Source: a virus (taxonomy: Duplodnaviria > Heunggongvirae > Uroviricota > Caudoviricetes). Taken from it: a stretch of 64,000 nucleotides of DNA. Location: IMG/VR virus record IMGVR_UViG_2531839524_000004. One strand, 5' to 3'. The number at the start of each line of letters is the position of its first letter. Positions within the stretch are counted from its first letter, which is position 1. Both the position numbers and the translations under genes were made by a program. Below are positions 5,137 to 64,000 of this stretch, in pieces. The notes below the pieces were generated by a model. It saw only the letters and a program-made list of their open reading frames with translations, did no database searches and was not told the DNA's origin.

Positions 5137-5171
5137 TTTAGACACAATCCCTTCTGATTTACACATACCCT

Positions 5172-5186
5172 AAAACAATTTGTTTT
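5172..5186. promoter_or_regulatory. operator-like palindrome AAAACAA-T-TTGTTTT
   Basis: First copy of the recurrent motif; about 65 bp upstream of the first prophage gene (5250). Confidence 0.5.
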
Positions 5187-5221
5187 CTGCCTTTTGTTGA
5201 TTGAGATAATAAACCACATAA

Positions 5222-5237
5222 GAAAACAACTTGTTTT
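5222..5237. promoter_or_regulatory. operator-like palindrome GAAAACAA-C-TTGTTTT
   Basis: Second tandem copy, 13 bp upstream of ATG 5250. Confidence 0.5.
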
Positions 5238-5249
5238 GGAGTGGTTTAA

Positions 5250-5549
5250 ATGTTGAACATTACCCAAGCCTACCAGGTGGCATTGATCAGCTCATCTCAT
5301 ACATCAGAGGAAGATGCTCGCCGATTCATGATCGCAAGCAATGAGCTGGATTGGGTTTCACAAATTGAGTACGGTTGCATTGTCCACGCCGGGTTACAGG
5401 ACGATGACTGGAAAGATGAGTTGCGTCGATATGGTATATCCGAGGGCGCGATTGCGAACATTCAGAAAGTACTTGATGTAGGCTTTGACTCTGTACATTT
5501 TGATTGTGGCGCACCGGTCGTTGAAGGGCTTGAGTGCTGGCAATGGTAA
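5250..5549 (+). CDS. hypothetical protein (first gene of the prophage early region)
   Basis: ORF track, 99 aa, acidic; preceded by two operator-like palindromes. Confidence 0.5.
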   Translation: MLNITQAYQVALISSSHTSEEDARRFMIASNELDWVSQIEYGCIVHAGLQDDDWKDELRRYGISEGAIANIQKVLDVGFDSVHFDCGAPVVEGLECWQW

Positions 5550-5585
5550 TCCGGCAATCGCTTCATACTAGATAACGGAGAATTT

Positions 5586-5771
5586 ATGCTTAAAGAAGAC
5601 TCATATCTACTAAAGGCGCTTGAAATGCGTGGCGTTGAACCTACAGTGAAAAACGCCCACGATATCTACCTTCAGTTTTCACCGGAGCTGAAACGGCTCA
5701 TAAATCAATACGGGGTTAATGACTCAAGTGTTAAAGCGATGATAGATGATGAATTAGACCATCTCATCTAA
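5586..5771 (+). CDS. hypothetical small protein
   Basis: ORF track, 61 aa; GGAG RBS 7 nt upstream. Confidence 0.4.
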   Translation: MLKEDSYLLKALEMRGVEPTVKNAHDIYLQFSPELKRLINQYGVNDSSVKAMIDDELDHLI

Positions 5772-5923
5772 TCGTTATCCTATGATAATGGTTTCACTTT
5801 GAGATTGTTATTTTTCATAGCCAAAGCTGATGTTTGTGGAAGGTGGATTGATAAACGGATGCGTATTTAGGTTATACAAGTGAGAAAATTGATAATATAT
5901 AAACGCGATTTTTATGTGATGGA

Positions 5924-6493
5924 ATGGATGTGATGGAAACCCAGAACCAACAAACAAAACCTCTGAATAACATTTATGCGTGGATTCTAGCGTTCATGCC
6001 TTTCTTCTTTGGAGTATTGCCGGAAGAGTATACCAATTACGCTATTATAATTGGGGGTGTAACTACCATCGGTTTGTTAGTAGCTGACAGAATGGCTCTA
6101 TCGGAGTCTGGCTGTGAACCACCTTCAATTCTATGGGGGGTATTCCTCCTGCCTGTCTATCTCTGGAAGCGCGCGACTATTACAAAAGGCAGCAGAGTGC
6201 CATTTATCATAATCGTTGCGTCGCTGGCTTGGATTATCTTCATCGGCATCCCACACAAGGACGAGGTTGCTCTTGAAGAAGCAGCCTGCCCTCTCGTGAC
6301 AACTATTCTGAAAGAGAATAACGGTTCGACTGCACCAAAATGTATGAAGGTGACAATAGAGGACAAGGTGACGGATAAGTTCTATAGAGCAACGGCTACA
6401 CTAGACAATGGTAATGACATTAACATTACTCTGGAACTTACCGGTGACAGGAACTTCTACGTCCGTGTTCCAAATGTTTATCTGAACAACTAA
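5924..6493 (+). CDS. hypothetical integral membrane protein
   Basis: ORF track, 189 aa; three to four hydrophobic segments followed by a soluble C-terminal domain. Confidence 0.5.
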   Translation: MDVMETQNQQTKPLNNIYAWILAFMPFFFGVLPEEYTNYAIIIGGVTTIGLLVADRMALSESGCEPPSILWGVFLLPVYLWKRATITKGSRVPFIIIVASLAWIIFIGIPHKDEVALEEAACPLVTTILKENNGSTAPKCMKVTIEDKVTDKFYRATATLDNGNDINITLELTGDRNFYVRVPNVYLNN

Positions 6494-6599
6494 CGGTTGC
6501 AACTTATTGATAATGGCGGTCACAATTTGATTCTTTTCTATAAGAATCCGTTGATCGCCACTACTCTCCTTCCATACCCGCAATCACATCCTTAAATAT

Positions 6600-7457
6600 C
6601 AATAAGTTATAGTTGTTTATACAATCAAGAAAACAACTGAATAACAGATCAACGAAACATCAACGCTTTCACCCGATTTGGTCTAAAAAATTGACGTTTT
6701 CACACATCACTGCTTATACCCGTAACTCTACGCAGCAGACAGCGCCACAGAGTCCAATTTTCACCACAGACGACTCAACACACTACCAACAAAAACACAC
6801 GCTCAAAATCGCTCCCGTTGCGTTACACAACCATATAAACAACATATTTTCAGGTATAACAAAACAACTAAATAACACATATGCCATTACCCAAAACAAC
6901 CAACCTCTTTATGGCAGGCTACCGAAAAGACCCACCTCTTCTCCCCAGGCTACCGGACAACCAACCTAACTTTCACAGGCAATCCGAAAACATTCATACG
7001 CGCGATACCCACGACACGCCATTACCCAAACAGCGAAGAAACACCTGAACCGCTGAAACCCCAACGAAGCCTGTAACCGCAAGGTTTCTCTCAATCCCAA
7101 AAGACACGAAACATAACAATCACGGGAAACGCCATTACCCAATACACGAATAACTACAAAAGCCTTTCACACACTCCAGACAAACAACTCAAACACAACA
7201 ACGAAAGGAATCGCCCACCTGCCATTACTCCATACACGGAGAAGAACAATCACCAAAACGACGAGAACACCCCATAGAAGAACCACCGCAAAACGAACGA
7301 AACCACATACACCGACAGAGAAAACAACACACCCAATTCACCAACAGAAATAGTCGCCGTATAGGACATTCTGGAAGGAGTGAGCATTAACGCCTATAGA
7401 GAGGTTGAGACAGATAAAACACAACATGTATAGCGAAGAAGCCAGGTATGTATAAGT
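6600..7457 (+). repeat. A+C-rich, G-poor non-coding region with four GCCATTAC(C/T)C-initiated repeat units
   Basis: Units begin at 6883, 7018, 7131 and 7221; the only ORF (6613-6969) translates to low-complexity T/Q/N/P/H sequence; strong strand asymmetry visible by eye. Confidence 0.6.
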
Positions 7458-7553: not shown

Positions 7554-7696
7554 CAGGGAAAAGGCTGCATCCCGCTACAGAAACGGCTGGGTTGCCTTCG
7601 GGGAACGGCTGGAGGTTTTCAGGGAAACGGTCGAGTTGCCTGTGTGGATTTCGGGAAAAGGCTCGATGCCGGTTCAGGAACGGTGGCGTACCGGTA
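7554..7696. repeat. tandem array of about six degenerate 20-25 bp direct repeats (core GGGAAA(A/C)GGCT)
   Basis: cagggaaaaggctgcatcc / cagaaacggctgggttgcc / ggggaacggctggagg / agggaaacggtcgagttgcc / cgggaaaaggctcgatgcc / caggaacggtggcgtacc. Confidence 0.6.
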
Positions 7697-13051: not shown

Positions 13052-13576
13052 TCAAAAAGGCAAAATTCGTTCAACCCAATCGAACAAAACAACTATTTTT
13101 CTACCGTTCTCGACACGTAGTGTAACCTGACAAGCATCTGCGCCTGCTGACACCCCCTCAATTTCACGGCCATCCGCCATGTACACCCTTATAGATTTGT
13201 TTGCTTTGTAGGCTTGGTTGCAAATTGCAAAAAAATCGCGGCGTGATGGCCGATTATCGACATAATCAGGGTGAACTGTTAGTCGACCTTTGAAATCGTG
13301 TGCGATACTGTCAACCACACCTGATTCAATTGTACTAATGCGTTCAAGTGGGAGCCTTATACGATTTTCTTTGTCAAAAGGGGCTGGGCAAAGGTCAACT
13401 TTGTTACGAGATGGCATGAGGCCATAAACGTACATGCAAAACGCCTGGCCATCTTCGAGAGTGACCCTTACAGGAATTTGTTCTCTGCGCCAGAACATCA
13501 GTAGTTTTTCAACGTTAGTGTAATCTCGCGGCCAGAGTTCAGCTTGGATACCGTAGGTAATATCTTTGGTTGTCAT
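13052..13576 (-). CDS. hypothetical protein
   Basis: ORF track gives 13052-13654; start set at the internal Met (MTTKDITYG) to avoid overlap with the upstream lipoprotein gene. Confidence 0.45.
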   Translation of the reverse strand: MTTKDITYGIQAELWPRDYTNVEKLLMFWRREQIPVRVTLEDGQAFCMYVYGLMPSRNKVDLCPAPFDKENRIRLPLERISTIESGVVDSIAHDFKGRLTVHPDYVDNRPSRRDFFAICNQAYKANKSIRVYMADGREIEGVSAGADACQVTLRVENGRKIVVLFDWVERILPF

Positions 13577-13580
13577 GTCA

Positions 13581-14003
13581 TCACAGAGTTGTTGGCAGAA
13601 TGTCGATGTCACCAGAATTGCTGGTGAACACCCTGAACGCTTTTGTGTCTCCATTCTTCAGAGTCGTTTCTCGCTCTTGACGAGCGGGGTTTAGAGCACA
13701 TAAACCTGCACCTTCAAGAGATGCACCCACAATTAATTCTCCGGCATTTAAATGGAAAGTCGCTTTTTCGCCTGTAGCCAGTTTTGCGACAGTTTCGCCG
13801 TTGATGAAAATGGAAGCATCACATCCAGCTCCTACAAAACCTGTGTCTCTCATTACCACCAACGTAGCTGGCGCTGCGCTTTGATACTTGAACACTTTGG
13901 CCTGCGGTGCTGGTTTGGCGTCATGGATTGATATTGGGCGTGATTGGCACGCGGTAAGCATCAACACTGGTAACGTTAGTAGAGGGAGAAGCGAGTATTT
14001 CAT
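13581..14003 (-). CDS. putative lipoprotein
   Basis: ORF track (13581-14045); start at MKYSLLPLLTLPVLMLTAC gives a signal peptide ending in lipobox LTAC. Confidence 0.55.
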   Translation of the reverse strand: MKYSLLPLLTLPVLMLTACQSRPISIHDAKPAPQAKVFKYQSAAPATLVVMRDTGFVGAGCDASIFINGETVAKLATGEKATFHLNAGELIVGASLEGAGLCALNPARQERETTLKNGDTKAFRVFTSNSGDIDILPTTL

Positions 14004-14352: not shown

Positions 14353-15912
14353 CTAATCTCGTTTCAGAACTCCAAAATCGAATGCTCCATCAATAGGCAA
14401 TACACCTTCTGCAAAGCCAGGTGTGGTGTCGATGATGTGTTTTCGCTCATAAGAGTGAGACAACAGGTATTTGTTGCTAATGTCAATGAAATCAGTGATA
14501 AAACACACGTTTGCCTGATTTTTTTTGGCTCGTAAGCCACGACCGACACGCTGCCTCATTTCAACTTCTGCTTTCCCACCACCAGCAAGAATGACCGCAC
14601 CAACGCTTGGCACATCAACACCGACATCCAGAATAGTCGAGCCTATTAAAACATCTATTTCTCCAGACGCTAAACTGTTCAGCTTTGCTTGCCTTGTCGT
14701 CTGGTTAGATTCCCCATAGATGAAATCAACTTTAAGACCTGACTCCTTCATCATCTCCATCAGGATTTGCCCGTGGCGTTTAAGACGAACCAGAGTCATG
14801 CAGTTGAGTGAATGTTGCTTATAAAGCAATGCCTCGCGCACTATGGCCTCGTTACGTCCCAAATTATACACGATCCCCAACTGATAAGCCTTTTGGTAGG
14901 CGGTGCTCATACCAACTCTAAAATTGAGGTGTTTGTTGGCAAGTTCGGCCTTGATTCTGGCCTCGTCTGGCTTGTAGGCAACTTTATGATAAAGGAAGTA
15001 CGGCTTTGCCAGAATGCCTCGATCAATCAGGTACTTTTCTGTGACTTTAATTTCAATTCGCCCGGCCACCGCCATCAGGCGCATGTTGGCTTCCGTCGAA
15101 TCCTTCATGAACGGCGTGGCTGTAAGCGCCAGACGATAGTCTGCGTTCACACATAATCTGGCAATGTCATAGAAATTAGAGCCTGAAGACTCATGCGCTT
15201 CTTCCAGAATAAGCAGAGACACACTTGAAAGGAAGCGTTTCACCAACTCCCGACGTTTGAGGTGGTAGCTCTTTTTATCTGGTGTTGCATCGCGTGGTGG
15301 TTCTTCAAGGAAACTTGCCAGAGTTTGAACTGTAGCGACGTTGATATGTCGTGATACCTGGAACTCACCCGAGCCAATGACTCCAACCTTTTGGTCTTTT
15401 AACCACGGTTCGCCATTTTCGGCGCGGTAGTCGATGGATCTCTGGAAGTTTTCGGCCATTTGAAACATCAGAACAGAGCGGGTTGTTAAAAATAATGTCA
15501 TTCGACCGATACGAGCAGCTGCTTTGCAGGCAACGTTAGATTTCCCGCCACCAGTAGCGATCTGCGCAATCATCATTCCCTCTCGAACCAGTGTTTCCAC
15601 AGTCTGATCCTGATACGCATAATCAGGATTGTATGGGAATGGGTTAACCGCAGGATTTGGTTTACCAAGCGCCGGGGCTTTGTCTTTGCGGATATGAACA
15701 CATTTGATGCCCGCCTTGTTCAAGTTCGCCGCTACAGGCTTGGCAAAGCCAGCAGGGAACGAGTTTTTACTCCAGTTGAACATCGTGCTTGTGCCCTTCC
15801 AGTCGCCAGTCTCGACTTCGTAGCTCAACATCTGTTGCACCATTTGCTTTACCTTGTCATCTGCGCCAGAAATAAGCGCATTAACTGCGTTAGATACAAT
15901 CCGAACAGTCAT
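14353..15912 (-). CDS. superfamily 2 DEAD/DEAH-box helicase
   Basis: Walker A ATGGGKS, Walker B/DEAH-like LILEEAH, motif III LALTATP; 519 aa. Confidence 0.8.
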   Translation of the reverse strand: MTVRIVSNAVNALISGADDKVKQMVQQMLSYEVETGDWKGTSTMFNWSKNSFPAGFAKPVAANLNKAGIKCVHIRKDKAPALGKPNPAVNPFPYNPDYAYQDQTVETLVREGMMIAQIATGGGKSNVACKAAARIGRMTLFLTTRSVLMFQMAENFQRSIDYRAENGEPWLKDQKVGVIGSGEFQVSRHINVATVQTLASFLEEPPRDATPDKKSYHLKRRELVKRFLSSVSLLILEEAHESSGSNFYDIARLCVNADYRLALTATPFMKDSTEANMRLMAVAGRIEIKVTEKYLIDRGILAKPYFLYHKVAYKPDEARIKAELANKHLNFRVGMSTAYQKAYQLGIVYNLGRNEAIVREALLYKQHSLNCMTLVRLKRHGQILMEMMKESGLKVDFIYGESNQTTRQAKLNSLASGEIDVLIGSTILDVGVDVPSVGAVILAGGGKAEVEMRQRVGRGLRAKKNQANVCFITDFIDISNKYLLSHSYERKHIIDTTPGFAEGVLPIDGAFDFGVLKRD

Positions 15913-21255: not shown

Positions 21256-21281
21256 GTAAGTAATTATCTAAGGTTATTCAA

Positions 21282-22856: not shown

Positions 22857-22877
22857 TAAGTAACAAAAGGAATTTTT

Positions 22878-23765: not shown

Positions 23766-23790
23766 CATCTAAATCAAAGGGAATTGATAG

Positions 23791-24727: not shown

Positions 24728-24739
24728 TAGGAGCGAGAA

Positions 24740-46172: not shown

Positions 46173-46185
46173 CAGGAGATCAAGG

Positions 46186-46878: not shown

Positions 46879-46879
46879 T

Positions 46880-53043: not shown

Positions 53044-53124
53044 AAAATAAGCGTGGAGAACACCTCCACGCTTGATTCATTGGTGAAACAACTTTTCTTT
53101 TGCCAAACCACAAAAGAAAAACAC

Positions 53125-54306
53125 ATGAGCCTTTATGTTATATCAACATTTAGGTTGGTCACAATATTGCCTGTTAAAAGTGGAATTATCGTGAGCGAGC
53201 TGAAAGAGCTAATTACCGAATTAGATTTTGAACAATGGTTGGATACTGAAGGTATCGTTTATCGACGTGGAGGCGTGAGTACTCGCGGTCGTGAAGTGAA
53301 TATCAAGGAGTGTCCGGTATGTGGCAGCTCCAACTGGAAGGTATATTTCAATCTGACCAGTGGCGTCGGTAAATGCTTCGCTGGTGATCATCCCGAAGAG
53401 ATTCAGTTCAATAAGCTGGTCTTCCTCAAGCACTACAGCGGCAAATCACGACGACAGTTCGAGGAATATGTGCAGAACGCCCTTCTTTCCCAGGGGTGGG
53501 CACCAAAGAAAGAAGAGCTAGTGCTTGCAAGCACAGTCGAGTTAGAGGGGCCAGTTGCACTCCCTCGTCATTACGAGCTTCCTATAGATGGTCGTCTTCC
53601 AGACTATCTGGTTGAACGAAACATATCGCCTGAAATGGCAAAGTATTTTGACCTACGATACTGCGTCGAAGGCAAGCACGCCTATGTAGATCCGTATACA
53701 GATCAGGTTAAAGGACAGATATTCGATATGCGAATACTGATACCGGTTTACGATCTGGATGGGGTAATGAAGACATTTCAGGGACGAGACATTACCGGTA
53801 CAGCAGAACGTCGCTACCTCTTTCCTATGCAGCTTCCAGCTTCAGGTAAGTTTCTCTACAACGGCCATAATGCAGTCGGCAAACAGACGGTAGTTGTCTG
53901 TGAGGGGGCGTTCGATGTTATGGGGGTCAAACGAGCTATTTTTGACGAAGAAACATTACGTGATTACGTGGAACCAATAGGAACGTTCGGGATGCATCTA
54001 TCTGGCAACACCACTCAGGATGCAGAAGATCAGCTGGGCGCGTTCCTGACGCTCAAGGCGCGTGGATTACGTAATGTGATCATGATGTGGGATAGTGAAA
54101 AGCAAGCTATACGCAACACTATGGCCGCAGCTAGGCGACTCACAAGTATTGGCCTTAATGTCAAAGTTGCGTGTTTGGGCGAGGAAGGACTCGACCCCGG
54201 CGATGCGACACCGGGGCAGATTATCAAAGCCTACTATTGCGCAAAACCTTATTCACGACAGCTTGAACTCTTAAGCAAGGTGAAAGGCATTGCAGCACTA
54301 GTTTGA
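53125..54306 (+). CDS. DNA primase (zinc-ribbon plus Toprim)
   Basis: Zn ribbon CPVCGSS...GKCFAGDH; Toprim-like VVVCEGAFDVMGV and MMWDSE; start uncertain (53053/53125/GTG 53191). Confidence 0.7.
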   Translation: MSLYVISTFRLVTILPVKSGIIVSELKELITELDFEQWLDTEGIVYRRGGVSTRGREVNIKECPVCGSSNWKVYFNLTSGVGKCFAGDHPEEIQFNKLVFLKHYSGKSRRQFEEYVQNALLSQGWAPKKEELVLASTVELEGPVALPRHYELPIDGRLPDYLVERNISPEMAKYFDLRYCVEGKHAYVDPYTDQVKGQIFDMRILIPVYDLDGVMKTFQGRDITGTAERRYLFPMQLPASGKFLYNGHNAVGKQTVVVCEGAFDVMGVKRAIFDEETLRDYVEPIGTFGMHLSGNTTQDAEDQLGAFLTLKARGLRNVIMMWDSEKQAIRNTMAAARRLTSIGLNVKVACLGEEGLDPGDATPGQIIKAYYCAKPYSRQLELLSKVKGIAALV

Positions 54307-55335
54307 ACCAGTATTAGTCACGTAAACATTGACCGAAAATGATTTAACTTCTGTGTTGAAGTTGTCAGTCATTACCGCGAGGTAGGCATTCTTGGTATCT
54401 CTGAATTGCTTCAGGATGATTTGAACGTTATCGGTGCAAACAAACGAGGTAGCCAGATTGCCTCCTTTCTCTGAAAAATCCTTTAGGAAAGTGCAGTCAA
54501 TTTTGCCATCATTAGCGGTGAAGGTGGCATCATCACCCTGCCAGGTAAATGTTGCGTTAACGCCTTTATCAATGGATTTAGCAATAAGTCGCTGAGTGGA
54601 GGATTTTGCTTTAGATCTTGCTGCTGATGGTTGGTATTTACCGCTTTCTTTTAGTTCTGCAATGTAATCACAGCCATTTTTATCTTCTTTATCGCAAGCT
54701 GCCTGATAAAGCTCAGCTGCTTTTTTATAATCTTTTTTAACCCCTTCACCATACTCATACATAATGCCAAGATTCGCCAATGCAGATGCACTGCCTAGTT
54801 CGATTCCTTTTTTATAATACTCTATTGCCTTTTTGTAGCTTTTTGGCACGCCTGCGCCAACATAATATAACTGTCCTAGATATGACGCAGATTCAGGGTC
54901 GCCAGCCTCTACTGCAAGTTTGTGATATTTCAGGGAAAGTTTTTGGTCTTTCTTACCCGCAAGTCCTTTATGATAAATAACACCCAGATTGTGATAAGAG
55001 TTGCCTCCAGCTGCATCACCAGCTTTCTTAAAGAGTTCCTCTGCCTTTTTGAAATTTTTATCAACCCCATACCCAAGGGCATACATTATACCTAGAGCAT
55101 TAAACGCTTCTTTGTTCCCCTTAGAAGTCGCCAGTTCAAGCCATTTTCTGGCTTCATCGTAGTTTTTTTCGACACCATGAATACCTTTCATATAGTCGAT
55201 ACCTAAAGCACTCTGTGACTCAACGTCGCCTGCTTTTGCCGCATCGATCAGCTTTTGTATTTCATAGGCATGTGCACTCCCCGAAACAAGTAATAGCGAC
55301 AACATAAAGAAAGATATTGGTTTGAAATGTTTCAT
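54298..55335 (-). CDS. secreted Sel1-repeat protein
   Basis: Signal peptide ...LLLVSGSAHA; at least six Sel1/TPR-like repeats (A..G...A.LG.MY..G.GV.K(D/N)YKKA...Y.KA); unrecognised about 110-aa C-terminal domain. Confidence 0.8.
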   Translation of the reverse strand: MKHFKPISFFMLSLLLVSGSAHAYEIQKLIDAAKAGDVESQSALGIDYMKGIHGVEKNYDEARKWLELATSKGNKEAFNALGIMYALGYGVDKNFKKAEELFKKAGDAAGGNSYHNLGVIYHKGLAGKKDQKLSLKYHKLAVEAGDPESASYLGQLYYVGAGVPKSYKKAIEYYKKGIELGSASALANLGIMYEYGEGVKKDYKKAAELYQAACDKEDKNGCDYIAELKESGKYQPSAARSKAKSSTQRLIAKSIDKGVNATFTWQGDDATFTANDGKIDCTFLKDFSEKGGNLATSFVCTDNVQIILKQFRDTKNAYLAVMTDNFNTEVKSFSVNVYVTNTGSN

Positions 55336-55516
55336 TTTTGGATTTTCACAAGATGGTTAGGTGGTTGTGGCTACTCGGTGTAAGGCTTTGTAATCACCGA
55401 TTGGTAAGGTTACTTCAATTTAGCTTAACTGTCAGCATACCCAATCGCCGAAAAGATAAGTAGATGATTACTTATTAGTGTGTAAGAATACTGCCATCTG
55501 TTAGCTAGGAGTTGGT

Positions 55517-56299
55517 ATGAAAGAAGAAATTAAGAGATTAGCCTGCAACATCATTGATAAAACTGGTTTAGAAATCAGCGAGAGCAATCGGCTAGACATC
55601 ATTGAAAAAGCCGTCAATACGGCAATGGATCATATCGCCACTCGTTTGGTCGAGATCCCGCTACCGGGGCTACCTTATCTGAAGGTTAAGTTGCGCGTAT
55701 GGGGCGAACCTGCACATGCACGACGTTCTGCATTAGTTGTTTTTGTACGCAAAGAAAACTTACGAACTCTAAAAGTGCAGGTTGGGGCGTGGTTTGATGG
55801 CAGAGTCATCTATACAGATACCATTATCTGTCCTCCAGGTGACGAACATATTGAAGCCGTCATTCGAGAATCAATTCGAGCTATGCGCAGTTTAGCTTTG
55901 CTGGAAGACAAGCAAAACTTTGAAGATTACTTGCTGTCGGTAAAAGCTGAACCAACATTGTCTCTGAAAGCCGATTTCGTCACCCCGACAAATCTGTTGG
56001 AGGTTTTGATTAATAAAGGGGCTAATGATGCTGTAAACCTAATCAGGGAAAGCGAATATTCGACTCTTTGCGACATGTGCAAAAGCCAGTTGGATCTGGT
56101 GCATATCGTTATTGATGCTGGGAAGGCATGTGATGGCGTAATGGCTGAATTTGCTGGGAAGATGGTCAGGATTGCTAACGAATTACCGATGATAGAGCAA
56201 GAGGCCAAATCATACGCCACCAATCATGTCACAGAGCTTCTTGCCCCCTATCGCTTAGAAAGCGATCAGCGCAAGATGATTAGCTGGGGAAGTTGGTAA
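55517..56299 (+). CDS. hypothetical protein
   Basis: ORF track, 260 aa. Confidence 0.5.
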   Translation: MKEEIKRLACNIIDKTGLEISESNRLDIIEKAVNTAMDHIATRLVEIPLPGLPYLKVKLRVWGEPAHARRSALVVFVRKENLRTLKVQVGAWFDGRVIYTDTIICPPGDEHIEAVIRESIRAMRSLALLEDKQNFEDYLLSVKAEPTLSLKADFVTPTNLLEVLINKGANDAVNLIRESEYSTLCDMCKSQLDLVHIVIDAGKACDGVMAEFAGKMVRIANELPMIEQEAKSYATNHVTELLAPYRLESDQRKMISWGSW

Positions 56300-56366
56300 G
56301 CTCTCTGTGTGTCGTTTTTTACGCAAATAATGATAGGTAAGCACAAGATTATTTCTGGCGGTAATT

Positions 56367-56837
56367 GTGAAAGCTGATTTGTCAAAAATCCCTTCTATTT
56401 CAGGAAATAACGGTTATTCACTTCGTTGTGAGGAAGTAAAGATAAACGGTGAGTCGGCATATTGCAGCTATTCCGTTTGCCAGCACACCATTCTTGCCTT
56501 CAAAGAAAACCGTCTTCCTCGAACTTCTTTCCAGTCGTGCGCAACCGCTATCAAAGCAGGCAAATGCAAGGCGTTAAAAATGATGGTTGAAGAGATTCGT
56601 AAAGGAGAATCTCTGTATTTCGAAGATATGACCGCGCTCATTAAGGAGGTTGAAGAACGGAATAAACAAGCCAGAACTATAAAACGAAAACGTGACAGTG
56701 TAACGATTAATAGCATGGTTAAGAAGAGCACCACATCACAAACAGCGATCACTGACGTGTATGCGGCGTTGCTTGAAGAAACAACAAAAGAAACACATGA
56801 GCAAATCGATCAACATATGGAGGCAAAACAACAATGA
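56367..56837 (+). CDS. hypothetical cysteine-rich protein
   Basis: ORF track, 156 aa (GTG start); C-x-x-x-C and C-x-x-C spacing near the N-terminus. Confidence 0.4.
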   Translation: MKADLSKIPSISGNNGYSLRCEEVKINGESAYCSYSVCQHTILAFKENRLPRTSFQSCATAIKAGKCKALKMMVEEIRKGESLYFEDMTALIKEVEERNKQARTIKRKRDSVTINSMVKKSTTSQTAITDVYAALLEETTKETHEQIDQHMEAKQQ

Positions 56838-58156
56838 AAAAGTTGATCGCACTTAAGCATAAGCTGGACGAAATGAAAGCTATGGGAACCAATGCAAAAA
56901 AAGAGGCATTGGCCAACATGGATGACTTCGAGCAAAGCATGGTTTCATTGATGCTCAACCCTTTCATCCGTTTTGGGGTAAAGAAATACAAAGTGGCAGA
57001 GCCGCTTAGTGAGTCCGTCCCAAGTGACGAAAAAGCCATTGATATACTGAATAAGCTGGCCTCTCGCGAGCTGACGGGGAACGCAGCAATAGCTGCTGTT
57101 GAGTCTATCGTGGCGTCAATGTGCGCCGATGGGCAGGACGTGTTCCGTCGTTTCCTCTTAAAAGATCCGAAAGCTGGCGTTGGGATTAGCCTATGTAACA
57201 AGGTTTTTGAAAATCCCATTCCGAAATTCGAGGTGCAGCTGGCGTCACCGTATAAAGAAAAAGGCGACAAATACCCCTTCAAGCCAAATCCTAAAGCCAA
57301 ATGGCCGATGATTGGCAGTCTTAAGCTCGATGGTTTGCGAGTAATTTGCGAGGTTATTGTTGACGAGGAAGAGGTTAACTTCCTTTCTCGTACTGGTAAT
57401 CCAATCACGTCTCTCGATCACCTAAAGCCAGCCATGCTCGAATTAGGCAAACTTTCAGGCCACAAACACATCTTCTTCGATGGTGAAGGAACTGCCGGTT
57501 CATTTAACCAGTCCGTATCTGCATTGCGCAAAAAGAACGTGCAGGCAATTGGCGCTATTTATCATGTTTTCGACTTCTTCCTACCGGAATGGCGAGCACA
57601 GGCTAAATCCAAAGAGTATGCAAAGACAGGTATGAAGCTGAAAGAGCGCCTGGCTATGCTGGTGGCGTTGTTCAAAAACGATCGCAGTGAAGGCTACACA
57701 CAAGACATTCACCTGCATCCGTTCTATATCATCCATAGCCACGAAGACTTCATCGAACGCTTCATGAAACGCCTGGACGATAACGAAGAAGGGGAGATGG
57801 GCAAAGATCCGAACTCTGTTTACGAGTTTAAACGTACCCGCAGCTGGTGGAAGTTAAAAGACGAAGATTCAGAAGATGGTGAAATTATCGACTTTGAGCC
57901 GGGCGACCCGGACTCTGGTTTTGCCAACACACTTGGAAAAATTGTTATTCGTCTTGAAAACGGCGTCATCGTTCGTGCGAGCGGTATTAAGCATAAATAT
58001 CTGGACGAGATCTGGAACAACAAAGAGAAGTACCGTGGTCGTATTGTTGAGGTTCATTGTCACGAGAAAACACCGGATGGCAGCTTACGCCACCCCCGAC
58101 TGAAATGGCCGCGTTGCTTACGCGATACAGAAGATCGAATCGGAGATAAAGAATGA
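56834..58156 (+). CDS. ATP-dependent DNA ligase
   Basis: Motif I KLDGLR, motif III-like FFDGEG, motif V WWKLK, C-terminal LRHPRL...R.D (motif VI-like); 440 aa. Confidence 0.75.
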   Translation: MKKLIALKHKLDEMKAMGTNAKKEALANMDDFEQSMVSLMLNPFIRFGVKKYKVAEPLSESVPSDEKAIDILNKLASRELTGNAAIAAVESIVASMCADGQDVFRRFLLKDPKAGVGISLCNKVFENPIPKFEVQLASPYKEKGDKYPFKPNPKAKWPMIGSLKLDGLRVICEVIVDEEEVNFLSRTGNPITSLDHLKPAMLELGKLSGHKHIFFDGEGTAGSFNQSVSALRKKNVQAIGAIYHVFDFFLPEWRAQAKSKEYAKTGMKLKERLAMLVALFKNDRSEGYTQDIHLHPFYIIHSHEDFIERFMKRLDDNEEGEMGKDPNSVYEFKRTRSWWKLKDEDSEDGEIIDFEPGDPDSGFANTLGKIVIRLENGVIVRASGIKHKYLDEIWNNKEKYRGRIVEVHCHEKTPDGSLRHPRLKWPRCLRDTEDRIGDKE

Positions 58157-58332
58157 TGCTCGGCTGGATGATTGCATTTTTAGCAGTTGGGTTTTTCATA
58201 GGTATTGTGGTGATGTCCAGTTGCATCAATGACTACATTAAAAGCGGTGTTATAGAAAGACGCGGTCGTATTTATCGCATTGTAGAAATAACCAACACCC
58301 TGAAGGAGATTAAGGATGATCGTATTAAGTAA
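58153..58332 (+). CDS. small membrane protein (59 aa)
   Basis: Own translation MMLGWMIAFLAVGFFIGIVVMSSCINDYIKSGVIERRGRIYRIVEITNTLKEIKDDRIK; start overlaps the ligase stop (ATGA). Confidence 0.4.
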   Translation: MMLGWMIAFLAVGFFIGIVVMSSCINDYIKSGVIERRGRIYRIVEITNTLKEIKDDRIK

Positions 58333-58531
58333 ACGGGAGAAGGAAACGCTTCATGAAATCAGTAAGTGGCCGGAGTTCCCTGAGTACTGGAAGCCTAAAA
58401 CGCGAGCTAAGTTAGAGCGTTTAGGGTTGGTTGCAAACGTTTCTGAAACGTGGTGTTCGGCCAACTACCAGTTAACTGATAAAGGGAAAGTATTGCTACA
58501 GCAATTAGTAGAATCAGGAGTGTTAAAATGA
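58316..58531 (+). CDS. hypothetical small protein
   Basis: ORF track, 71 aa. Confidence 0.4.
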   Translation: MIVLSKREKETLHEISKWPEFPEYWKPKTRAKLERLGLVANVSETWCSANYQLTDKGKVLLQQLVESGVLK

Positions 58532-58680
58532 TTCCATACATCTCATTAGCTTTTATGGGTGGCTTCCTTATCGGCTTCGGCATCTGTCGTGATTTAATTA
58601 AGCAGGAACTTAAAACCAAAACACTGTGCATCGGAAAGCGTGTGTATCGGGTAGTTCATGAAACAAAGGTGAAAAAATGA
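58528..58680 (+). CDS. small membrane protein (50 aa), paralogue of 58153-58332
   Basis: Own translation MIPYISLAFMGGFLIGFGICRDLIKQELKTKTLCIGKRVYRVVHETKVKK; shares TM plus G(R/K)R.YR.VE.T with the 59-aa protein. Confidence 0.4.
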   Translation: MIPYISLAFMGGFLIGFGICRDLIKQELKTKTLCIGKRVYRVVHETKVKK

Positions 58681-58967
58681 GCAATTTAACTTCTTGGGAA
58701 TGGTGGTTGGCCACCTATTTCTTAGCGGCCGGAGTCGCATTCGCCTTTTACGTAGGTCAGTTAGTCGTAAAACTGTTGCTGATTAAATTTGCTAGTCATA
58801 AACGTATCGATGATGGTCTGTGGCGTCTTGGCACCCTGGTGGAAACTCGCTACGGGCAACTTAAGGAGAACGAAACCATTACTATCCAAGCGAAACGATT
58901 CACTGCCACCATTACAAGAACACCTAGTCGTAGAGTGGCCTTGATCAAAAAAGTCACAACCGAATAA
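58677..58967 (+). CDS. hypothetical membrane protein
   Basis: ORF track, 96 aa; N-terminal TM helix. Confidence 0.4.
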   Translation: MSNLTSWEWWLATYFLAAGVAFAFYVGQLVVKLLLIKFASHKRIDDGLWRLGTLVETRYGQLKENETITIQAKRFTATITRTPSRRVALIKKVTTE

Positions 58968-59172
58968 AAACATATTGATAAGTATTTACTTACTTATCTT
59001 TTGTGTATAAGATGACTTTGTTTTCGTTGAGACGCGACTGTTTGAACTTAAATACAAGTGCAAACGAAGAAGTCTATCTGGCAGTAGCCTAATAAGCCAA
59101 ACACCAGCGAGGTCAGTTTCCAGCCTCGTTACCGAAATGGGACACACTGAGCGAGTGGGATTGCAGAACGCA

Positions 59173-59196
59173 GGAGGGAACATTCATGTTCCCTCC
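59173..59196. repeat. perfect 24-bp palindrome GGAGGGAACATTCATGTTCCCTCC
   Basis: 11-bp arms with 2-nt centre; first of three inverted-repeat structures upstream of the tRNA cluster. Confidence 0.7.
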
Positions 59197-59202
59197 GATG
59201 AA

Positions 59203-59280
59203 GTAACAGAATGGGCGGTTGGTATATTTTCAACTCCATATGACTCCCGGATTCTTAGCCACTGACCGCCCATTCTGTTA
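59203..59280. repeat. long-range inverted repeat AACAGAATGGGCGGT ... ACCGCCCATTCTGTT
   Basis: 15-bp arms separated by about 45 bp. Confidence 0.7.
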
Positions 59281-59745
59281 CGTCATTTTGTTCAATTATG
59301 TCGTTTATACTGGGTTAAAAAGCGGCGACGTAGCCCGGCTGGTATGGTTAGCCAGCACACAACGTTGAGGCCATTACATTTTTATCAATTCTAAGGTTCT
59401 ATTCACAGAGATACCGGCGAGCGTTGATATGTAACATGTTGGGCAAACATTCAATCGGAGTAGTGGCCTCAACGTTGTGAAGACGGGATTGTTGTGTAGG
59501 TTTAACCACTGTTGCCATTGGTGCCTGTTTTCACAACAAATGATTCCATACATCACATTGTATAAATTACAAAGTAGGTGCTGTCCTCAGAAACATCATC
59601 TACTTAAAGATTTTGCCTTCTACTATTGAGCGAAGTCGAAAGCGTCTGGCACTAACGAAAAGTGCAAGTAGCGGTGCGTTTCCTGGCAGAAACTAAACCG
59701 TCGCGATTGGCACTGTTGAGTAATAAATACTGGCAGTGCTGAATT

Positions 59746-59820
59746 GATGGTGTAGCTCAGCGGTAGAGCAGTTGGCTGTTAACCAACTGGTCGGTGGTTC
59801 GAATCCACCCACCATCGCCA
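59746..59820 (+). tRNA. tRNA-Asn (anticodon GTT)
   Basis: Manual cloverleaf: acceptor GATGGTG/CACCATC, D-arm GCTC..GAGC, anticodon loop CTGTTAA, T-loop TTCGAAT, 3' CCA. Confidence 0.8.
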
Positions 59821-59825
59821 ATTTA

Positions 59826-59912
59826 GGGGAGTTAGTCCGTAGAGGTAGCGGTGTAGACTGTAAATCTACTGTCATGGCGACTCGGGTGGTTCGACTCCAT
59901 CACTCCCCACCA
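59826..59912 (+). tRNA. tRNA-Tyr (anticodon GTA), long variable arm
   Basis: Acceptor GGGGAGT/ACTCCCC, anticodon loop CTGTAAA, long variable arm, T-loop TTCGACT, 3' CCA; D-arm non-canonical. Confidence 0.6.
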
Positions 59913-59916
59913 AATT

Positions 59917-59992
59917 GCCGGTTTAGCTCAGTTGGTAGAGCGCCTGCCTTGTAAGCAGGATGTCAGCGGTTCGAGTCCGTTAACCGGCACCA
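59917..59992 (+). tRNA. tRNA-Thr (anticodon TGT)
   Basis: Acceptor GCCGGTT/AACCGGC, D-arm GCTC..GAGC, anticodon loop CTTGTAA, T-loop TTCGAGT, 3' CCA. Confidence 0.8.
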
Positions 59993-60209
59993 ACACAACA
60001 GGAAAGAGCATTGAAACCCGCCGAGACTGCCCTGTTTTAAGCGTAAGTCCGTGCAAACGTCATACAGTGCTCTTTTCGTTGTGGTTGATGCGCAGACTGA
60101 TGCGCGGAAAGAAATGCCCCAGCGACACACGAGGCGAGTTCACACACTGCAATGCAGTCAGTAGCCGGGGTCGCTAAGCCGGAGATCAGTACCGGTAACC
60201 ACAACAATT

Positions 60210-60296
60210 GGAGAGTAGGGAGCATGGTGCTCAAGCGGTCTTGAAAACCGTCCCATTGTGCAAACGATGATGGTTCGATTCCATTACTCTCCGCCA
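60210..60296 (+). tRNA. tRNA-Ser (anticodon TGA), long variable arm
   Basis: Acceptor GGAGAGT/ACTCTCC, anticodon loop CTTGAAA, long variable arm, T-loop TTCGATT, 3' CCA. Confidence 0.65.
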
Positions 60297-60488
60297 GACA
60301 CAGCGTTGAGCGGTTTGGCCTTTTAATCAACTCGATTAAGACTCCGCTAACATAAACCAGACCGCTCAACGCTGTGATAGATAATTACGGCAGACGTTCT
60401 TAACCATAGCTTGCTAACATCCTAGCAACACTTTTTTCAGCGCAAAATTCAAAGGGGCTTCGGCCCCTTTTTTGTTGAACAGTGCAAT

Positions 60489-61751
60489 TTACTTTGCATA
60501 GTCGCCCAATTTTAATATTTCGCGCTTATATTCATTAACCATGCTACTGGATTCAGTATAAATTCGATTTAAAAGATTATCGTTATCTTTATTTTCATTT
60601 ATCTTAATTAGTGCTAATTTATATTCATAGTCATCAAATGCCACAATTAAATGGTGGCCTGGGATTATATCTTCGTCACTCTTAAAGTATATATCTTCAA
60701 GTATGTAATCTAGTTGATTAGATTTTCTTTTCTCGATGTAATCTTCAGCCATAGCTATTACATCATTCCTGTCATTTAACCTGTTTTTTTCGGAAGGCAC
60801 ATCTTCGTAATGTTGCACGATTGAACAACCAATAAGGCGTGGGATGTAAACGTCAAAATGAGTAACTCTATCATTCGCGGTTTTAAGTAGTTCCTCAAAG
60901 TAGTTTCTTACATGTAAAGGCAACTTCTCAAAGTAATCATTAATTATAGGAGAACAAGGAGTTTTATAATTCATAAGAACCGACGGTACGAGCTTTGGGT
61001 GTCGAAACATCCAGTCCCTTTTAACGTCCGATGGAACATAATAACTTTTAATGATATTATCAAAATAATTTATCATTCGAGATTTGAATATTTTGTTGAA
61101 TCTAAGGTTTATGAATGTATCCAGATAAGGCATATTTGAATAAGCATCATCAAAAAATATTTCATCATTGAAAAAATCATATTTATTCAATAAACAACAC
61201 AGTTTTTCCGAATTAATATGTTCACAATAATCGATTTTTAATCCAAAGATAGCAATGATCAACTTCATCTGAGGTGGGATTTTAAAAATTAATTGTGACA
61301 CATACGCTCTTTTTTCCTTGAGACATTCCCCATCAATATAAAATGAACCATCCACATACTCAAATATATTAATAATATGCTTCACATACTGTATTACCTC
61401 ATGCTGTCTTACCAATGGATAATATAGTCTATGTAACTCATCGCTGTTTAAATTAATTTTGTGTTTATCGATAATTTGTTTTGCAAGAAGACATAACTCA
61501 TCATGTTGATTTAATAAGGAATCAAACCATTGTTTAAATGCACTCTTTCGCATTTCGAACAATGATTCAGTTGTTAATTGAAGGGCTGAAAAAGCTGCTT
61601 TTGCACTTTTTCTCGCTTCGTAGGCATTCCATGCTGTTGCTATAAAAGCAAATGCTGTAGCCAATGTTCCAACAGTTTGACCATTTAAAACAACCCAATC
61701 CCAAAAAATGACGGTGAGCAGTAGTATAATAATGAAAATTAAAAAAGGCAT
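60489..61751 (-). CDS. hypothetical AT-rich membrane-anchored protein (cargo gene)
   Basis: ORF track, 420 aa; two N-terminal hydrophobic segments then a large soluble domain; markedly AT-rich versus flanking genes. Confidence 0.6.
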   Translation of the reverse strand: MPFLIFIIILLLTVIFWDWVVLNGQTVGTLATAFAFIATAWNAYEARKSAKAAFSALQLTTESLFEMRKSAFKQWFDSLLNQHDELCLLAKQIIDKHKINLNSDELHRLYYPLVRQHEVIQYVKHIINIFEYVDGSFYIDGECLKEKRAYVSQLIFKIPPQMKLIIAIFGLKIDYCEHINSEKLCCLLNKYDFFNDEIFFDDAYSNMPYLDTFINLRFNKIFKSRMINYFDNIIKSYYVPSDVKRDWMFRHPKLVPSVLMNYKTPCSPIINDYFEKLPLHVRNYFEELLKTANDRVTHFDVYIPRLIGCSIVQHYEDVPSEKNRLNDRNDVIAMAEDYIEKRKSNQLDYILEDIYFKSDEDIIPGHHLIVAFDDYEYKLALIKINENKDNDNLLNRIYTESSSMVNEYKREILKLGDYAK

Positions 61752-61925
61752 GTATGTATTTCACTCTACTAACTATAAAATATTAGGCTAATGTTAACCA
61801 AACAATGCCTTAATTAATAGATTGATCGAGGCTTTAATAGCTTTATAATGCAGACTGTAAAGATAAGTATGCACATACCTATCTTCTTTGTAAGTAAAGT
61901 TGCATATCAATTCTATGAGGTAACA

Positions 61926-62171
61926 ATGACGATCACTATCTACGGACGAGATAACTGCTCATACTGCAAACGTGCGGTCGAGCTGGCGAAGCAACTAAAG
62001 GGACATGGCTACGGTGATTATGAGTACATCGACATCACCACTGCCGGTATCGACAAGGAAAAACTAAGTGAAATTGTTGGTAAACCGGTAGAGACTATCC
62101 CCCAAGTGCTGATCGATGGCCAACCGATTGGCGGATACACAGAACTGGCTGCATACGTCAGCACCCTCTGA
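61926..62171 (+). CDS. glutaredoxin
   Basis: Active site CSYC and C-terminal ...GKPVETIPQVLIDGQPIGGYTEL resemble E. coli GrxA (from memory); start at MTITIYG after RBS GAGG; ORF-track start 61848 is an N-terminal extension. Confidence 0.75.
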   Translation: MTITIYGRDNCSYCKRAVELAKQLKGHGYGDYEYIDITTAGIDKEKLSEIVGKPVETIPQVLIDGQPIGGYTELAAYVSTL

Positions 62172-62180
62172 TTTTAACGG

Positions 62181-62203
62181 CTCACAGGAGCCGTTTTTAT
62201 TCC
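62181..62203 (+). terminator. intrinsic terminator after the glutaredoxin gene
   Basis: acggctc-acag-gagccgt followed by TTTTAT. Confidence 0.6.
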
Positions 62204-62251
62204 CACCAAACTCACTCCCGTTTCCCTTAAAATTCAAAAAACAACGTCAAA

Positions 62252-62282
62252 ATGATTCCATACCTACTATGTATGGAATCAT
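62252..62282. promoter_or_regulatory. perfect inverted repeat ATGATTCCATA-N9-TATGGAATCAT upstream of the integrase
   Basis: 11-bp arms; the half-site AATGATTCCATACA also occurs at 58527-58540 and 59539-59552. Confidence 0.5.
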
Positions 62283-62381
62283 TACTGAAAATGAGTTACT
62301 TTGACTCTTGATCCTATAAGAATCTATGCCTAATATACTGTTTACTTATACAGTGAATCGGCGTAACTCGGTGATTGTCAT

Positions 62382-63485
62382 ATGAAAAATAGCTTTGACA
62401 GAGCACGCGCTGCGGAGAACACCTCAAAAGAGGCGATTGAGTATCTCGAAAGAGCATCTCAAATGCAGGCCGTTATGATCTCGCAGGTTAGCAATGATAT
62501 GAGATTCTCGGACGCATTCATGTTATTTACTCGCTTATCTCTGCTGATAACAAGACGTCGGCCGGAGATCGCTGTTCATTGTATTTTGATACATGTTTTG
62601 CCGCACATTGCTGATGTAAAAGTAAGTGACATTAATAGGTTCATGGTGAACCAACTGGTCAACCCCCTAATACTGGATGGCAAAATTGTTATGGGCCGCC
62701 GCGTTTTCTCTCTGATGAAGCAGTTCCTTAGCTGGTGTGCCTTCCAGGGGATGATCGACGTGTCACCGTTAAACGATATGTCACTAAACAAAGTTGCCGG
62801 TGGCGCAAAGCCCACGCCTCGCGAGCGGAAGCTAACCGACGCAGAGGTATGGGTGTTCTGGAATATATGGGACTACTTCAATGTGTGCGCTGGTACAAAA
62901 TGGGCGGCCAGGCTATGTCTTGTATCCGCAAGACGACCTGACGAAGTACTGCGGGCTAAAAAAAGTGAGTTCAACCTCCAGCGTGGGGTTTGGAATCAAG
63001 GCAAGAGAAACAAATCAGCCCGTGAGCATTCTCTGCCTTTAAGCACATTAATGCGCACATGCATTGAAGAGTTATTCGAATATGGTAAAGGCAGCCAGTG
63101 GCTTGTGCCTTCGAATAAAAAAATCGGGAAAGATCTTCCGATGTCTAAAGTGGCAATAGCCCAGGCATTACGCCGTATCCTGGAACGACCAGAACTGATG
63201 GAGCTTGAGCCATTTACACCACGAGATTTGCGTCGTACTGCGCGTAGTTACTTCCCAGCATTAGGCATAAGCCAGGAGGTATCACGTAAAATCATGAACC
63301 ACAGTCTTGAGGGGATAGATCGGGTCTACGACCGGCACGATTATATGGACGAGATGCGAGACGCCTTAGAAAGTTTCTCGACGTACATCGCATCAATCGT
63401 AGAGCAACCGGATTTAGACGAAATTGACCACAAATTCAAGGGAGATCGTCTATCGACAGAGCTTATTCGTGTAAATTTTTCATAG
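62382..63485 (+). CDS. tyrosine-type site-specific recombinase (integrase)
   Basis: 367 aa; C-terminal catalytic-domain residues in expected order (...TPRDLRRTARS...HS...VYDRHDY...). Confidence 0.85.
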   Translation: MKNSFDRARAAENTSKEAIEYLERASQMQAVMISQVSNDMRFSDAFMLFTRLSLLITRRRPEIAVHCILIHVLPHIADVKVSDINRFMVNQLVNPLILDGKIVMGRRVFSLMKQFLSWCAFQGMIDVSPLNDMSLNKVAGGAKPTPRERKLTDAEVWVFWNIWDYFNVCAGTKWAARLCLVSARRPDEVLRAKKSEFNLQRGVWNQGKRNKSAREHSLPLSTLMRTCIEELFEYGKGSQWLVPSNKKIGKDLPMSKVAIAQALRRILERPELMELEPFTPRDLRRTARSYFPALGISQEVSRKIMNHSLEGIDRVYDRHDYMDEMRDALESFSTYIASIVEQPDLDEIDHKFKGDRLSTELIRVNFS

Positions 63486-63866
63486 AGACTTTATGGCCTC
63501 AACAACCTTTTGTGATGCGCCTTTCTCTTTACCGAATCGCTCGTTATATGCAGCAAGAACCTGTTTTTCGTCCTCGTTAAGAGGAGCAGTGCCTTCTTTG
63601 TATAAAAATGCTGCGAGTTCGGGTTGGCGTTCTTCCAGCACCATCATCATAAGACGACTTGGCTCAATACCCAGTGCCAGCGCCAGCGGACGAACCTTAT
63701 CGATAGGCAAAGGAATTTTGCCGCTTTTAATTAAAGAAAGGTTGTTGGCGTTTTTATACCCAATTGTTTTGGCTATCTGGGCCTGGCTCATAGGTGAGGA
63801 TTCAATCAACCCTGCGATAAAAGCAGCGTAGCGACTTTCTATAAATTCAATCTTGTTGTCAGACAT
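63480..63866 (-). CDS. XRE-family helix-turn-helix transcriptional regulator
   Basis: 128 aa; HTH ...MSQAQIAKTIGYKNANNLSLIKSGK...; convergent with and overlapping the integrase 3' end by 6 nt. Confidence 0.7.
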   Translation of the reverse strand: MSDNKIEFIESRYAAFIAGLIESSPMSQAQIAKTIGYKNANNLSLIKSGKIPLPIDKVRPLALALGIEPSRLMMMVLEERQPELAAFLYKEGTAPLNEDEKQVLAAYNERFGKEKGASQKVVEAIKSL

Positions 63867-64000
63867 TGTTACAACCTTTGCGCGTTCAATTCTCTCTGGT
63901 AAGTGCTTACCGATATTACATCAAAGGTTAGGGTTGTAAAGCTATTATCATTTTTTTCGATAGGCACTTAAAAGACCGGTTAAAGGCCATTGCACGGAGA

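Follow-up and report, generated by a model that had tools for sequence, protein, structure and literature searches.

A 64-kb viral sequence as part of an SSU5-supergroup phage-plasmid with a captured apbC-metG block and a putative self-site recombinase

The 64,000-nucleotide (nt) stretch of virus record IMGVR_UViG_2531839524_000004 (hereafter the window, meaning the whole of the DNA that was analysed) is assigned by sequence comparison to the Escherichia coli lineage of the SSU5 supergroup of phage-plasmids, and represents about 64 kb (~60%) of an element of ~110 kb. The elements pECOH89, pLF82/phage Cyrano and p09EL50 are of the same kind. The explanation that best joins our observations, and in which we place high confidence, is an SSU5-supergroup phage-plasmid that has captured the genes apbC and metG and carries a recombinase that most likely acts on a site of its own. 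This kind of phage-plasmid is already known and has been seen hundreds of times, and several papers describe the family as phage-like plasmids or phage-plasmids (PMC3999498, PMC7969092, PMC8085198, PMC12977533). The original prediction, made from the letters of the window, had proposed a phage with plasmid maintenance and independent replication that could exist both integrated and as a plasmid. The phage-plasmid half of that proposal holds, whereas the integrated state is not supported: the window contains no chromosomal junction, and none of the 254 places at which the recombinase module was found in complete E. coli genomes is chromosomal.

Window positions 311–64000 are colinear, at 95–99% nucleotide identity, with circular E. 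coli plasmids of ~108–115 kb and with the phages Cyrano, CMS-2020a and PhiR41_1; the members of this lineage that we compared include pECOH89, pLF82 and p09EL50. For every part of the window the best matches among 5,426 complete E. coli genomes are plasmids of ~100–120 kb, and the family is present in 251 of these genomes (~4.6%). In one colinear alignment, window 1324–64000 runs against 84867->17881 of the circular plasmid NZ_CP062814.1 (114,826 bp), the remainder of which encodes a RepB-family initiator, DnaE, RecA, a 5'-3' exonuclease, NrdAB, ThyA, DfrA51, RNase H and Dam. Megablast against phage records returned Escherichia phages CMS-2020a, PhiR41_1 and Cyrano at 94–98% identity, followed by Klebsiella relatives at ~79% and SSU5 at 81%. 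The SSU5 backbone homology covers the structural and replication modules (window ~19.2–59.4 kb), whereas tblastn and megablast found no SSU5 counterpart of the recombinase region (for the recombinase itself, by tblastn), the metG block or the region left of ~19 kb. A chromosomal match in strain PK6 was rejected as a relative: it is a P22-like prophage, and the common part is the humD-adjacent module alone.

The members of the E. coli lineage share with the window its genes for structure, lysis, ParA, helicase-primase-ligase, tRNAs, recombinase and repressor, and most also have the apbC-metG cargo. This copy differs from them by an insertion of the IS66 family of insertion sequences (IS) at 310/311 and by its own combination of tail-fibre allele, Sel1 gene, 420-residue hot-spot allele and tRNA-Tyr; its exact tail-fibre protein was not found on record. 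In the literature on enterotoxigenic E. coli the lineage is named the pHCM2 family, and papers describe pHCM2 as kin to these plasmids; pSLy3 as a label for the lineage is a guess, based on the hosts listed.

The siphovirus morphogenesis set is complete. PHROG matches identify the terminase (large subunit at 19999–21255; E=4e-63), portal (6e-141), scaffold (2e-54), tape measure (29776–34368; phrog_1292), minor tail proteins (phrog_18, phrog_30), central fibre J (phrog_31) and tail fibre families, while the capsid and lysis genes were assigned via their position in annotated relatives, the capsid gene taking its name from the PGAP annotation of the 98% identical pRes13. The lambda-like tail genes of the original prediction were recovered within this set, which spans 19999–45645, with L/K/I/J-like tip genes at 34796–41643 and a tail fibre of 1302 residues. 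The plasmid initiator (RepA/RepB) lies outside the window and is present in the colinear relative NZ_CP062814.1; reviews describe the initiator of the SSU5 supergroup as IncFIB-type. Cyrano, whose recombinase CYRAN_44 is 100% identical to that of the window, persists as a plasmid with 5.5 copies per cell; genotoxic stress induces it, and it then produces siphovirus particles (PMC9928086). By analogy with these relatives, the element would replicate during lysogeny as a low-copy plasmid from its RepB/RepA initiator and segregate by means of ParA; once induced by the SOS response, it would replicate with a helicase, primase, ligase and DnaE set of its own and form siphovirus particles.

At the left end, the original prediction had placed a switch from chromosome to phage at 5140 and, with it, an insertion directly downstream of chromosomal metG. 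The gene is present as described, with a terminator-like hairpin after it (5108–5132); however, the DNA to its left, with apbC, humD and a gene interrupted by IS66, is part of the element as well. Homology to bacterial chromosomes is limited to window 1801–5089, exactly apbC plus metG, and element DNA flanks metG on both sides, so 5140 is not a boundary, the two genes are element cargo, and the window holds no junction between chromosome and element. In both NZ_CP062814.1 and NZ_CP024264.1, apbC-metG lies between humD (named 'HumD family translesion DNA polymerase' by PGAP) and small element genes, beyond which the backbone resumes; in NZ_CP024264.1 and pRes13, where metG/apbC likewise stand between humD and element genes, rnhA, dam, thyA and nrdAB follow further left. 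The match to relatives begins at 311, and positions 1–310 encode what we take to be the C-terminus of an IS66 TnpC. Because position 311 maps inside the coding sequence of WP_000108704.1 (62344–62970 of NZ_CP024264.1, with window 311–700 100% identical), the IS66-family end interrupts an element gene. This 310/311 junction was not found among the 5,426 complete E. coli genomes.

The apbC-metG segment is a 3.3-kb captured chromosomal block within the element; neither gene is damaged, and purifying selection on both is strong. The metG product (677 residues, with HLGH and KMSKS motifs) is 99.0% identical to that of K-12, and the gene 94.6% identical in nucleotides (dS 0.26; dN/dS 0.02), whereas the neighbouring apbC reaches 94% in amino acids and 82% in nucleotides (dS 1.55; dN/dS 0.02). 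For calibration of this discordance, K-12 and another Escherichia species are 94% identical in metG and 90% in apbC, and K-12 and Citrobacter 88% and 84%. No close donor of the block was found among 80 species loci, apbC being ~80–82% identical to every sampled genus. The exact apbC protein occurs in 12,090 blocks of the assembly collection, mostly on contigs of 50–200 kb. The metG block is carried by 208 PLSDB plasmids (191 Escherichia, 6 Shigella, 5 Salmonella and 5 Klebsiella; pECOH89 included), 203 of them non-mobilizable, and by 194 of the complete E. coli genomes besides the chromosomal copy. Plasmid metG alleles of different isolates are mosaics with tracts of chromosome-type single-nucleotide polymorphisms (SNPs), and the plasmid copy therefore exchanges sequence with the host copy. 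We found no literature discussing metG, apbC or fljA on these plasmids. One record labelled as the chromosome of Enterobacter hormaechei strain B56, CP170191.1 (L008), has the same percentage identities to the window apbC and metG as K-12, and is therefore probably a mislabelled E. coli record.

The tyrosine recombinase annotated as an integrase gives no sign of a chromosomal state. Together with the adjacent helix-turn-helix (HTH) gene (module 62300–63900) it occurs at 254 places in 251 of the complete E. coli genomes, all 254 on plasmids, and in a larger assembly collection the exact protein was present in 1,009 blocks, none on a contig >200 kb. For window 56000–64000, which includes the recombinase gene with its flanks, there are only 13 chromosomal places among the 5,426 genomes, and therefore no conserved chromosomal sequence of at least 28 nt matches the region. 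The recombinase is 82% identical in Klebsiella phage-plasmids, and homologues at 42–87% identity are spread across Enterobacterales, mostly on contigs of ~100–125 kb, after which identity drops to at most 34%. These distant relatives (24–34%) are P4/CP4-57-type genomic-island integrases, the closest outgroup, which have the same PF22022 core-binding and PF00589 catalytic domains. Unlike the window family, they own an N-terminal arm-DNA-binding domain (PF13356) and integrate into chromosomes; no PF13356 match was found in the window recombinase, and the aligned outgroup proteins are extended at the N-terminus by ~80 alignment columns that the phage-plasmid family lacks. The catalytic residues R185, K211, R284, H307 and Y316 are conserved, and the first His position is an Arg (R281) in this family. 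The integrase of the original prediction is thus a genuine tyrosine recombinase, but chromosomal integration does not follow from it, given the exclusively plasmid-borne places, the missing arm-binding domain and the lox-like site described below. Nor is the region right of ~59 kb a separate island, which had been raised as a way for the prediction to fail: recombinase, repressor and CobT/DnaE genes form conserved backbone in the E. coli and Klebsiella relatives.

The candidate site, AATGATTCCATAC-CTACTAT-GTATGGAATCATT, is a perfect 12-7-12 palindrome ~100 nt upstream of the recombinase start. It is found in seven lineages whose recombinases are 44–100% identical, with symmetric arm changes and a constant 7-nt spacer length. 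Three E. coli/Klebsiella lineages have invariant arms within flanks that are only ~70% identical, and their spacers read CTACTAT, TTGGTAG and TTGTAAG; in a Nissabacter-like element, whose protein is 60% identical, these arms surround TTATATA. In Xenorhabdus, Providencia and Erwinia-like elements (42–46% identity) the site is TGACTCCAGAC-N7-GTCTGGAGTCA, so that two positions are substituted, both of them symmetrically in the two arms. When IMG/VR was scanned with a degenerate pattern, at least 120 contigs had the site, once each. Among the 120 sites listed there are only two arm types, both symmetric and never mixed within a site, and the 7-nt spacer takes at least 20 forms; a recombinase homologue starts 42–102 nt downstream in 113 of these 120. 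At an Erwinia-like locus (L119) the site and the recombinase gene stand without HTH and CobT neighbours. Elements from one host species can have different spacers, which argues against a conserved chromosomal attB.

The symmetric arms, the free spacer of fixed 7 bp, the single site per element and the lack of an arm-binding domain point to a self-site recombinase, whose function is most likely multimer resolution rather than chromosomal integration. The arrangement of candidate site and gene resembles that of simple tyrosine-recombinase systems such as Cre/loxP. On this evidence the protein would be an arm-less, P4-derived tyrosine recombinase acting on the 12-7-12 palindrome as Cre does on loxP; it probably resolves plasmid multimers and perhaps circularises incoming DNA. 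A LexA box, TACTGTTTACTTATACAGTG (TACTGT-N8-ACAGT), precedes the start codon by 29 nt. The box is conserved only in the E. coli, pTB212 and Klebsiella lineages, with differing N8, and suggests that the recombinase is under SOS/LexA control there. The downstream HTH gene corresponds to CYRAN_45, the putative lysogeny repressor of Cyrano (PMC9928086). The recombinase (+) and repressor (-) genes are convergent and overlap by 6 nt, so that transcripts running on past the recombinase gene under SOS induction would be antisense to the repressor; within the repressor gene there is also an antisense open reading frame (ORF) of 112 residues (63493–63831).

The order of phage genes after metG and its terminator, together with the presence of a tyrosine recombinase, would fit a prophage integrated by that enzyme directly downstream of chromosomal metG and possibly excising to persist as a plasmid. 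We regard this as extremely unlikely, for the window apbC is of the plasmid type (82% to K-12) with humD and element genes further left, hundreds of circular plasmids have this arrangement too, no chromosome among the 5,426 genomes carries the recombinase, and 56000–64000 has so few chromosomal places in them. Some observations do weigh against reading this copy simply as a free phage-plasmid. The left end of the window is an IS, and the window includes neither RepB, DnaE nor either end of the molecule, so that it does not by itself reveal whether this copy is a free plasmid, part of a cointegrate or chromosomal. In addition, a few draft or Mb-size contigs have the element apbC joined to, or embedded in, chromosomal DNA. 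Contigs with this apbC reach 2.7–5.6 Mb, and two draft contigs (L090, 483 kb; L093, 371 kb) run from element genes through plasmid-type apbC and a hybrid metG, in which plasmid-type SNPs change to chromosome-type, into the chromosomal DUF4132 gene. Such contigs, like the host-type SNP tracts in plasmid metG and the 94.6% identity of metG against only 82% for the adjacent apbC, would be expected if this or some copies joined the chromosome or another replicon without an integrase, through RecA at metG or through IS cointegration (for example by IS66). We nonetheless think this very unlikely. The window metG is embedded in element DNA, left and right, as in a copy that has not recombined; the L090-type metG junction was not found in any complete E. 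coli genome, the top query coverage of 81% being a normal chromosome; L090 and L093 are draft contigs that may be assembly chimeras across a 2-kb repeat; and the exact recombinase and DnaB alleles never occur on contigs >200 kb. As complete E. coli genomes hold neither a metG junction nor a chromosomal recombinase module, integration via metG is rare, transient or an assembly artefact.

A different doubt concerns the palindrome, at which recombination is predicted. A symmetric site with a free spacer could also be the operator of a dimeric regulator, including one by which the recombinase regulates itself. The palindrome would then be a transcriptional operator only, of the recombinase or of another regulator, and the recombinase would have a different role or none now. 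The promoter-proximal position of the site, 42–102 nt upstream of the gene, and its dyad symmetry agree with this, as do single exact arm copies (AATGATTCCATAC) at 58527 and 59539, which the simple lox model does not explain. We consider an operator alone rather unlikely. A 7-bp spacer flanked by arms of 12–13 bp is the standard geometry of core sites for lambda/P4-type tyrosine recombinases, the site stays with the recombinase gene even at a locus that has no neighbouring HTH gene (L119), and the conservation of the catalytic residues across 44–100% identity indicates that catalysis is under selection. The two 13-mer copies (58527–58539 and 59539–59551) are on the + strand at the start (MIPY...) of tiny ORFs and are conserved in E. 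coli relatives; the relative pRes13 has another exact arm copy inside dnaE.

Comparison with described recombination systems places the putative self-site recombinase beside P1 Cre/loxP and Dre/rox, Vika/vox, VCre, Nigri and Panto. As in these, a phage-plasmid recombinase is accompanied by a single perfect inverted-repeat site beside its gene, there is no arm-binding domain, and natural variation is confined to the spacer. It differs from Cre/loxP-type systems in having no close sequence relationship to them (the nearest proteins being P4/CP4-57-type integrases), a spacer of 7 rather than 8 nt and a LexA box in some lineages.

The original prediction included a pair of ParA and a ribbon-helix-helix (RHH) protein. 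The ParA half is borne out by profile matches and a Walker A motif; the RHH fold of the partner is not. The ParA gene is intact, encoding 222 residues with a deviant Walker A, and the suggestion that the partition genes might be inactive remnants can be dropped for parA. For the 119-residue partner no Pfam or PDB-sequence match was found, and Foldseek returned nothing for a single-sequence AlphaFold2 model (predicted local distance difference test 67) that consists of a disordered N-terminus and three helices. In part the pair recalls type Ib partition systems, which combine a small ParA with a small centromere-binding protein (for example ParF/ParG of TP228): the partner gene is small and overlaps that of ParA, and the N-terminus of the protein it encodes is basic and disordered. 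It departs from that type in that no similarity of the partner to ParG or any other RHH protein was detected, and a search around parA for centromere or iteron repeats yielded no convincing array.

The GIY-YIG nuclease of the original prediction is present downstream of the partition genes (49868–50635, - strand), as are a DnaB-like helicase (51703–53043), a primase (53053–54306) and an ATP-dependent ligase (56834–58156). The primase has weak Pfam matches, and PGAP calls its counterpart in relatives a primase. Of the self-sufficient replisome of the original prediction, the window holds helicase, primase and ligase; DnaE and the other replisome genes lie outside it and are seen in relatives only. 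The exact DnaB allele was not found on contigs >200 kb. The Sel1-repeat gene inserted in this block is present in pRes13 and L106 and absent from Cyrano and AVS0968. In pRes13 (L005 9521–13833) dnaE is split by an HNH endonuclease gene, and in L107 an HNH/NUMOD3 gene follows a truncated dnaE.

Variable cargo is concentrated between the tRNA array and the recombinase site. All four predicted tRNAs (Asn, Tyr, Thr and Ser, 59746–60296) were found; the array is common to the plasmid relatives, and an Rfam scan of the window gave tRNAs only. The hot spot between tRNA-Ser and grxA holds a membrane-anchored family of 395–432 residues and 31–38% GC, with alleles only 30–35% identical (L098, L105, L106, L102); some relatives have AbiGi plus a 403-residue ORF, or other genes, in its place. 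The 420-residue allele of the window has no Pfam or PADLOC match. We considered and rejected the idea that it is the P4-type integrase of a tRNA-Ser islet, since it lacks an integrase domain and is one of a hypervariable gene family whose locus is fixed. A PADLOC scan of ten accessory ORFs gave generic helicase matches only. A second variable slot, between grxA and the palindrome (62172–62250), is empty here and is occupied elsewhere by CYRAN_43 in Cyrano (L003), a 307-residue ORF in pRes13 (L005) and a YafO toxin pair in pTB212 (L115). CYRAN_43 has been reported at 723x background in lysogen transcriptomes (PMC9928086). At this second slot the homology of relatives resumes at most 23 nt (0–23) from the left arm. 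The slot from tRNA-Ser to the site (60.5–62.25 kb) as a whole ends 0–23 nt from the left arm in every comparison made, and in different relatives contains unrelated defence-like or toxin genes. A more speculative idea, which we judge improbable, is that the LexA-controlled recombinase and its site form an SOS-induced, integron-like platform for cargo exchange, while the captured metG would let the element enter and leave the chromosome by RecA-dependent recombination.

The features of the window are listed in Table 1. The FljA-like gene is only 78% identical to its pRes13 counterpart and could alter host flagellin expression. The A+C-rich tract, 720 nt long and ~7 standard deviations above the window mean (400-nt windows), contains loose repeats of 29–31 nt and is conserved in E. 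coli relatives, in which the equivalent 1.5 kb has no annotated gene; three GGGAAAAGGCT...AACGG repeats follow it (7556–7683).

Table 1 Features of the 64,000-nt window
Feature	Position	Strand	Basis or remark
3' end of IS66-family transposase gene, with element end	1–310	+	sequence reading; copy-specific insertion
Phage-plasmid hypothetical gene, C-terminal part, IS-cut	311–568	+	WP_000108704.1 in NZ_CP024264.1
LexA box	1336–1351	+	CTGT-N8-ACAG match
humD/UmuD-like S24 peptidase gene	1370–1759	+	PF00717 E=1.5e-9
apbC (mrp), element-borne	1797–2897	-	PF10609 E=2e-102
metG (methionyl-tRNA synthetase), element-borne, intact	3055–5088	+	PF09334 E=5e-166
A+C-rich, apparently non-coding tract (72% A+C)	6640–7360	+	composition
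FljA-like 'repressor of phase-1 flagellin' gene (cargo)	13052–13654	-	PF03614 E=2.5e-84; phrog_1444
DEAD/DEAH (UvsW-like) helicase	14353–15912	-	Pfam, PGAP and Cyrano names
Two ParB_N-domain proteins, ABC-type ATPase and 296-residue ORF, upstream of terminase	up to 18892		Pfam, PGAP/Cyrano names
Head and tail-shaft module: large terminase, portal, scaffold, major capsid, Ig-domain proteins, major tail protein	19999–29066	+	
Tape measure, lambda M/L/K/I/J-like tail tip genes, tail fibre	29776–45645	+	PHROG
Lysis genes (holin, endolysin, Rz)	45849–47131	+	position equivalent to CYRAN_22-24 of Cyrano
ParA ATPase	48788–49456	+	MipZ/AAA_31/CbiA matches; phrog_164 E=4e-51; GGTKGGPGKST Walker A
ParA partner, 119 residues	49456–49815	+	phrog_5111 only
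LEM-3-like GIY-YIG nuclease	49868–50635	-	PF22945 E=5.5e-7
Replication block: DnaB-like helicase, primase, ATP-dependent ligase	51703–58156	+	
Sel1-repeat gene	54298–55335	-	antisense insert between primase gene and next backbone gene
tRNA array Asn(GTT), Tyr(GTA), Thr(TGT), Ser(TGA)	59746–60296	+	ARAGORN; Rfam finds 3/4
Hypervariable membrane-anchored ORF, 420 residues, GC 31% (cargo hot spot)	60489–61751	-	
Glutaredoxin (grxA-like)	61848–62171	+	PF00462 E=7e-11
Candidate recombination site	62251–62283		
LexA box upstream of recombinase gene	62335–62354	+	
Tyrosine recombinase (annotated integrase), 367 residues	62382–63485	+	PF00589 E=6e-10
HTH regulator, convergent with recombinase gene	63480–63866	-	phrog_8 E=1e-11

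As an identification the result adds nothing new, the window being one more copy of a described family; of modest interest as by-products are the candidate site of the recombinase, the predicted control of its gene by LexA, the metG mosaicism and the hypervariable slot, none of which changes the classification. The case does caution that a housekeeping gene such as metG beside phage genes does not prove a chromosomal junction. If the recombinase acts as proposed, a lox-like site would explain why a tyrosine recombinase is retained in elements said to "lack integrases", and the many spacers that it has in nature would make it a source of new, orthogonal tools for recombination. For the host, a multi-copy phage-plasmid carries a second, strongly conserved metG together with apbC, and the mosaic metG alleles reflect ongoing sequence exchange between phage-plasmid and chromosome.

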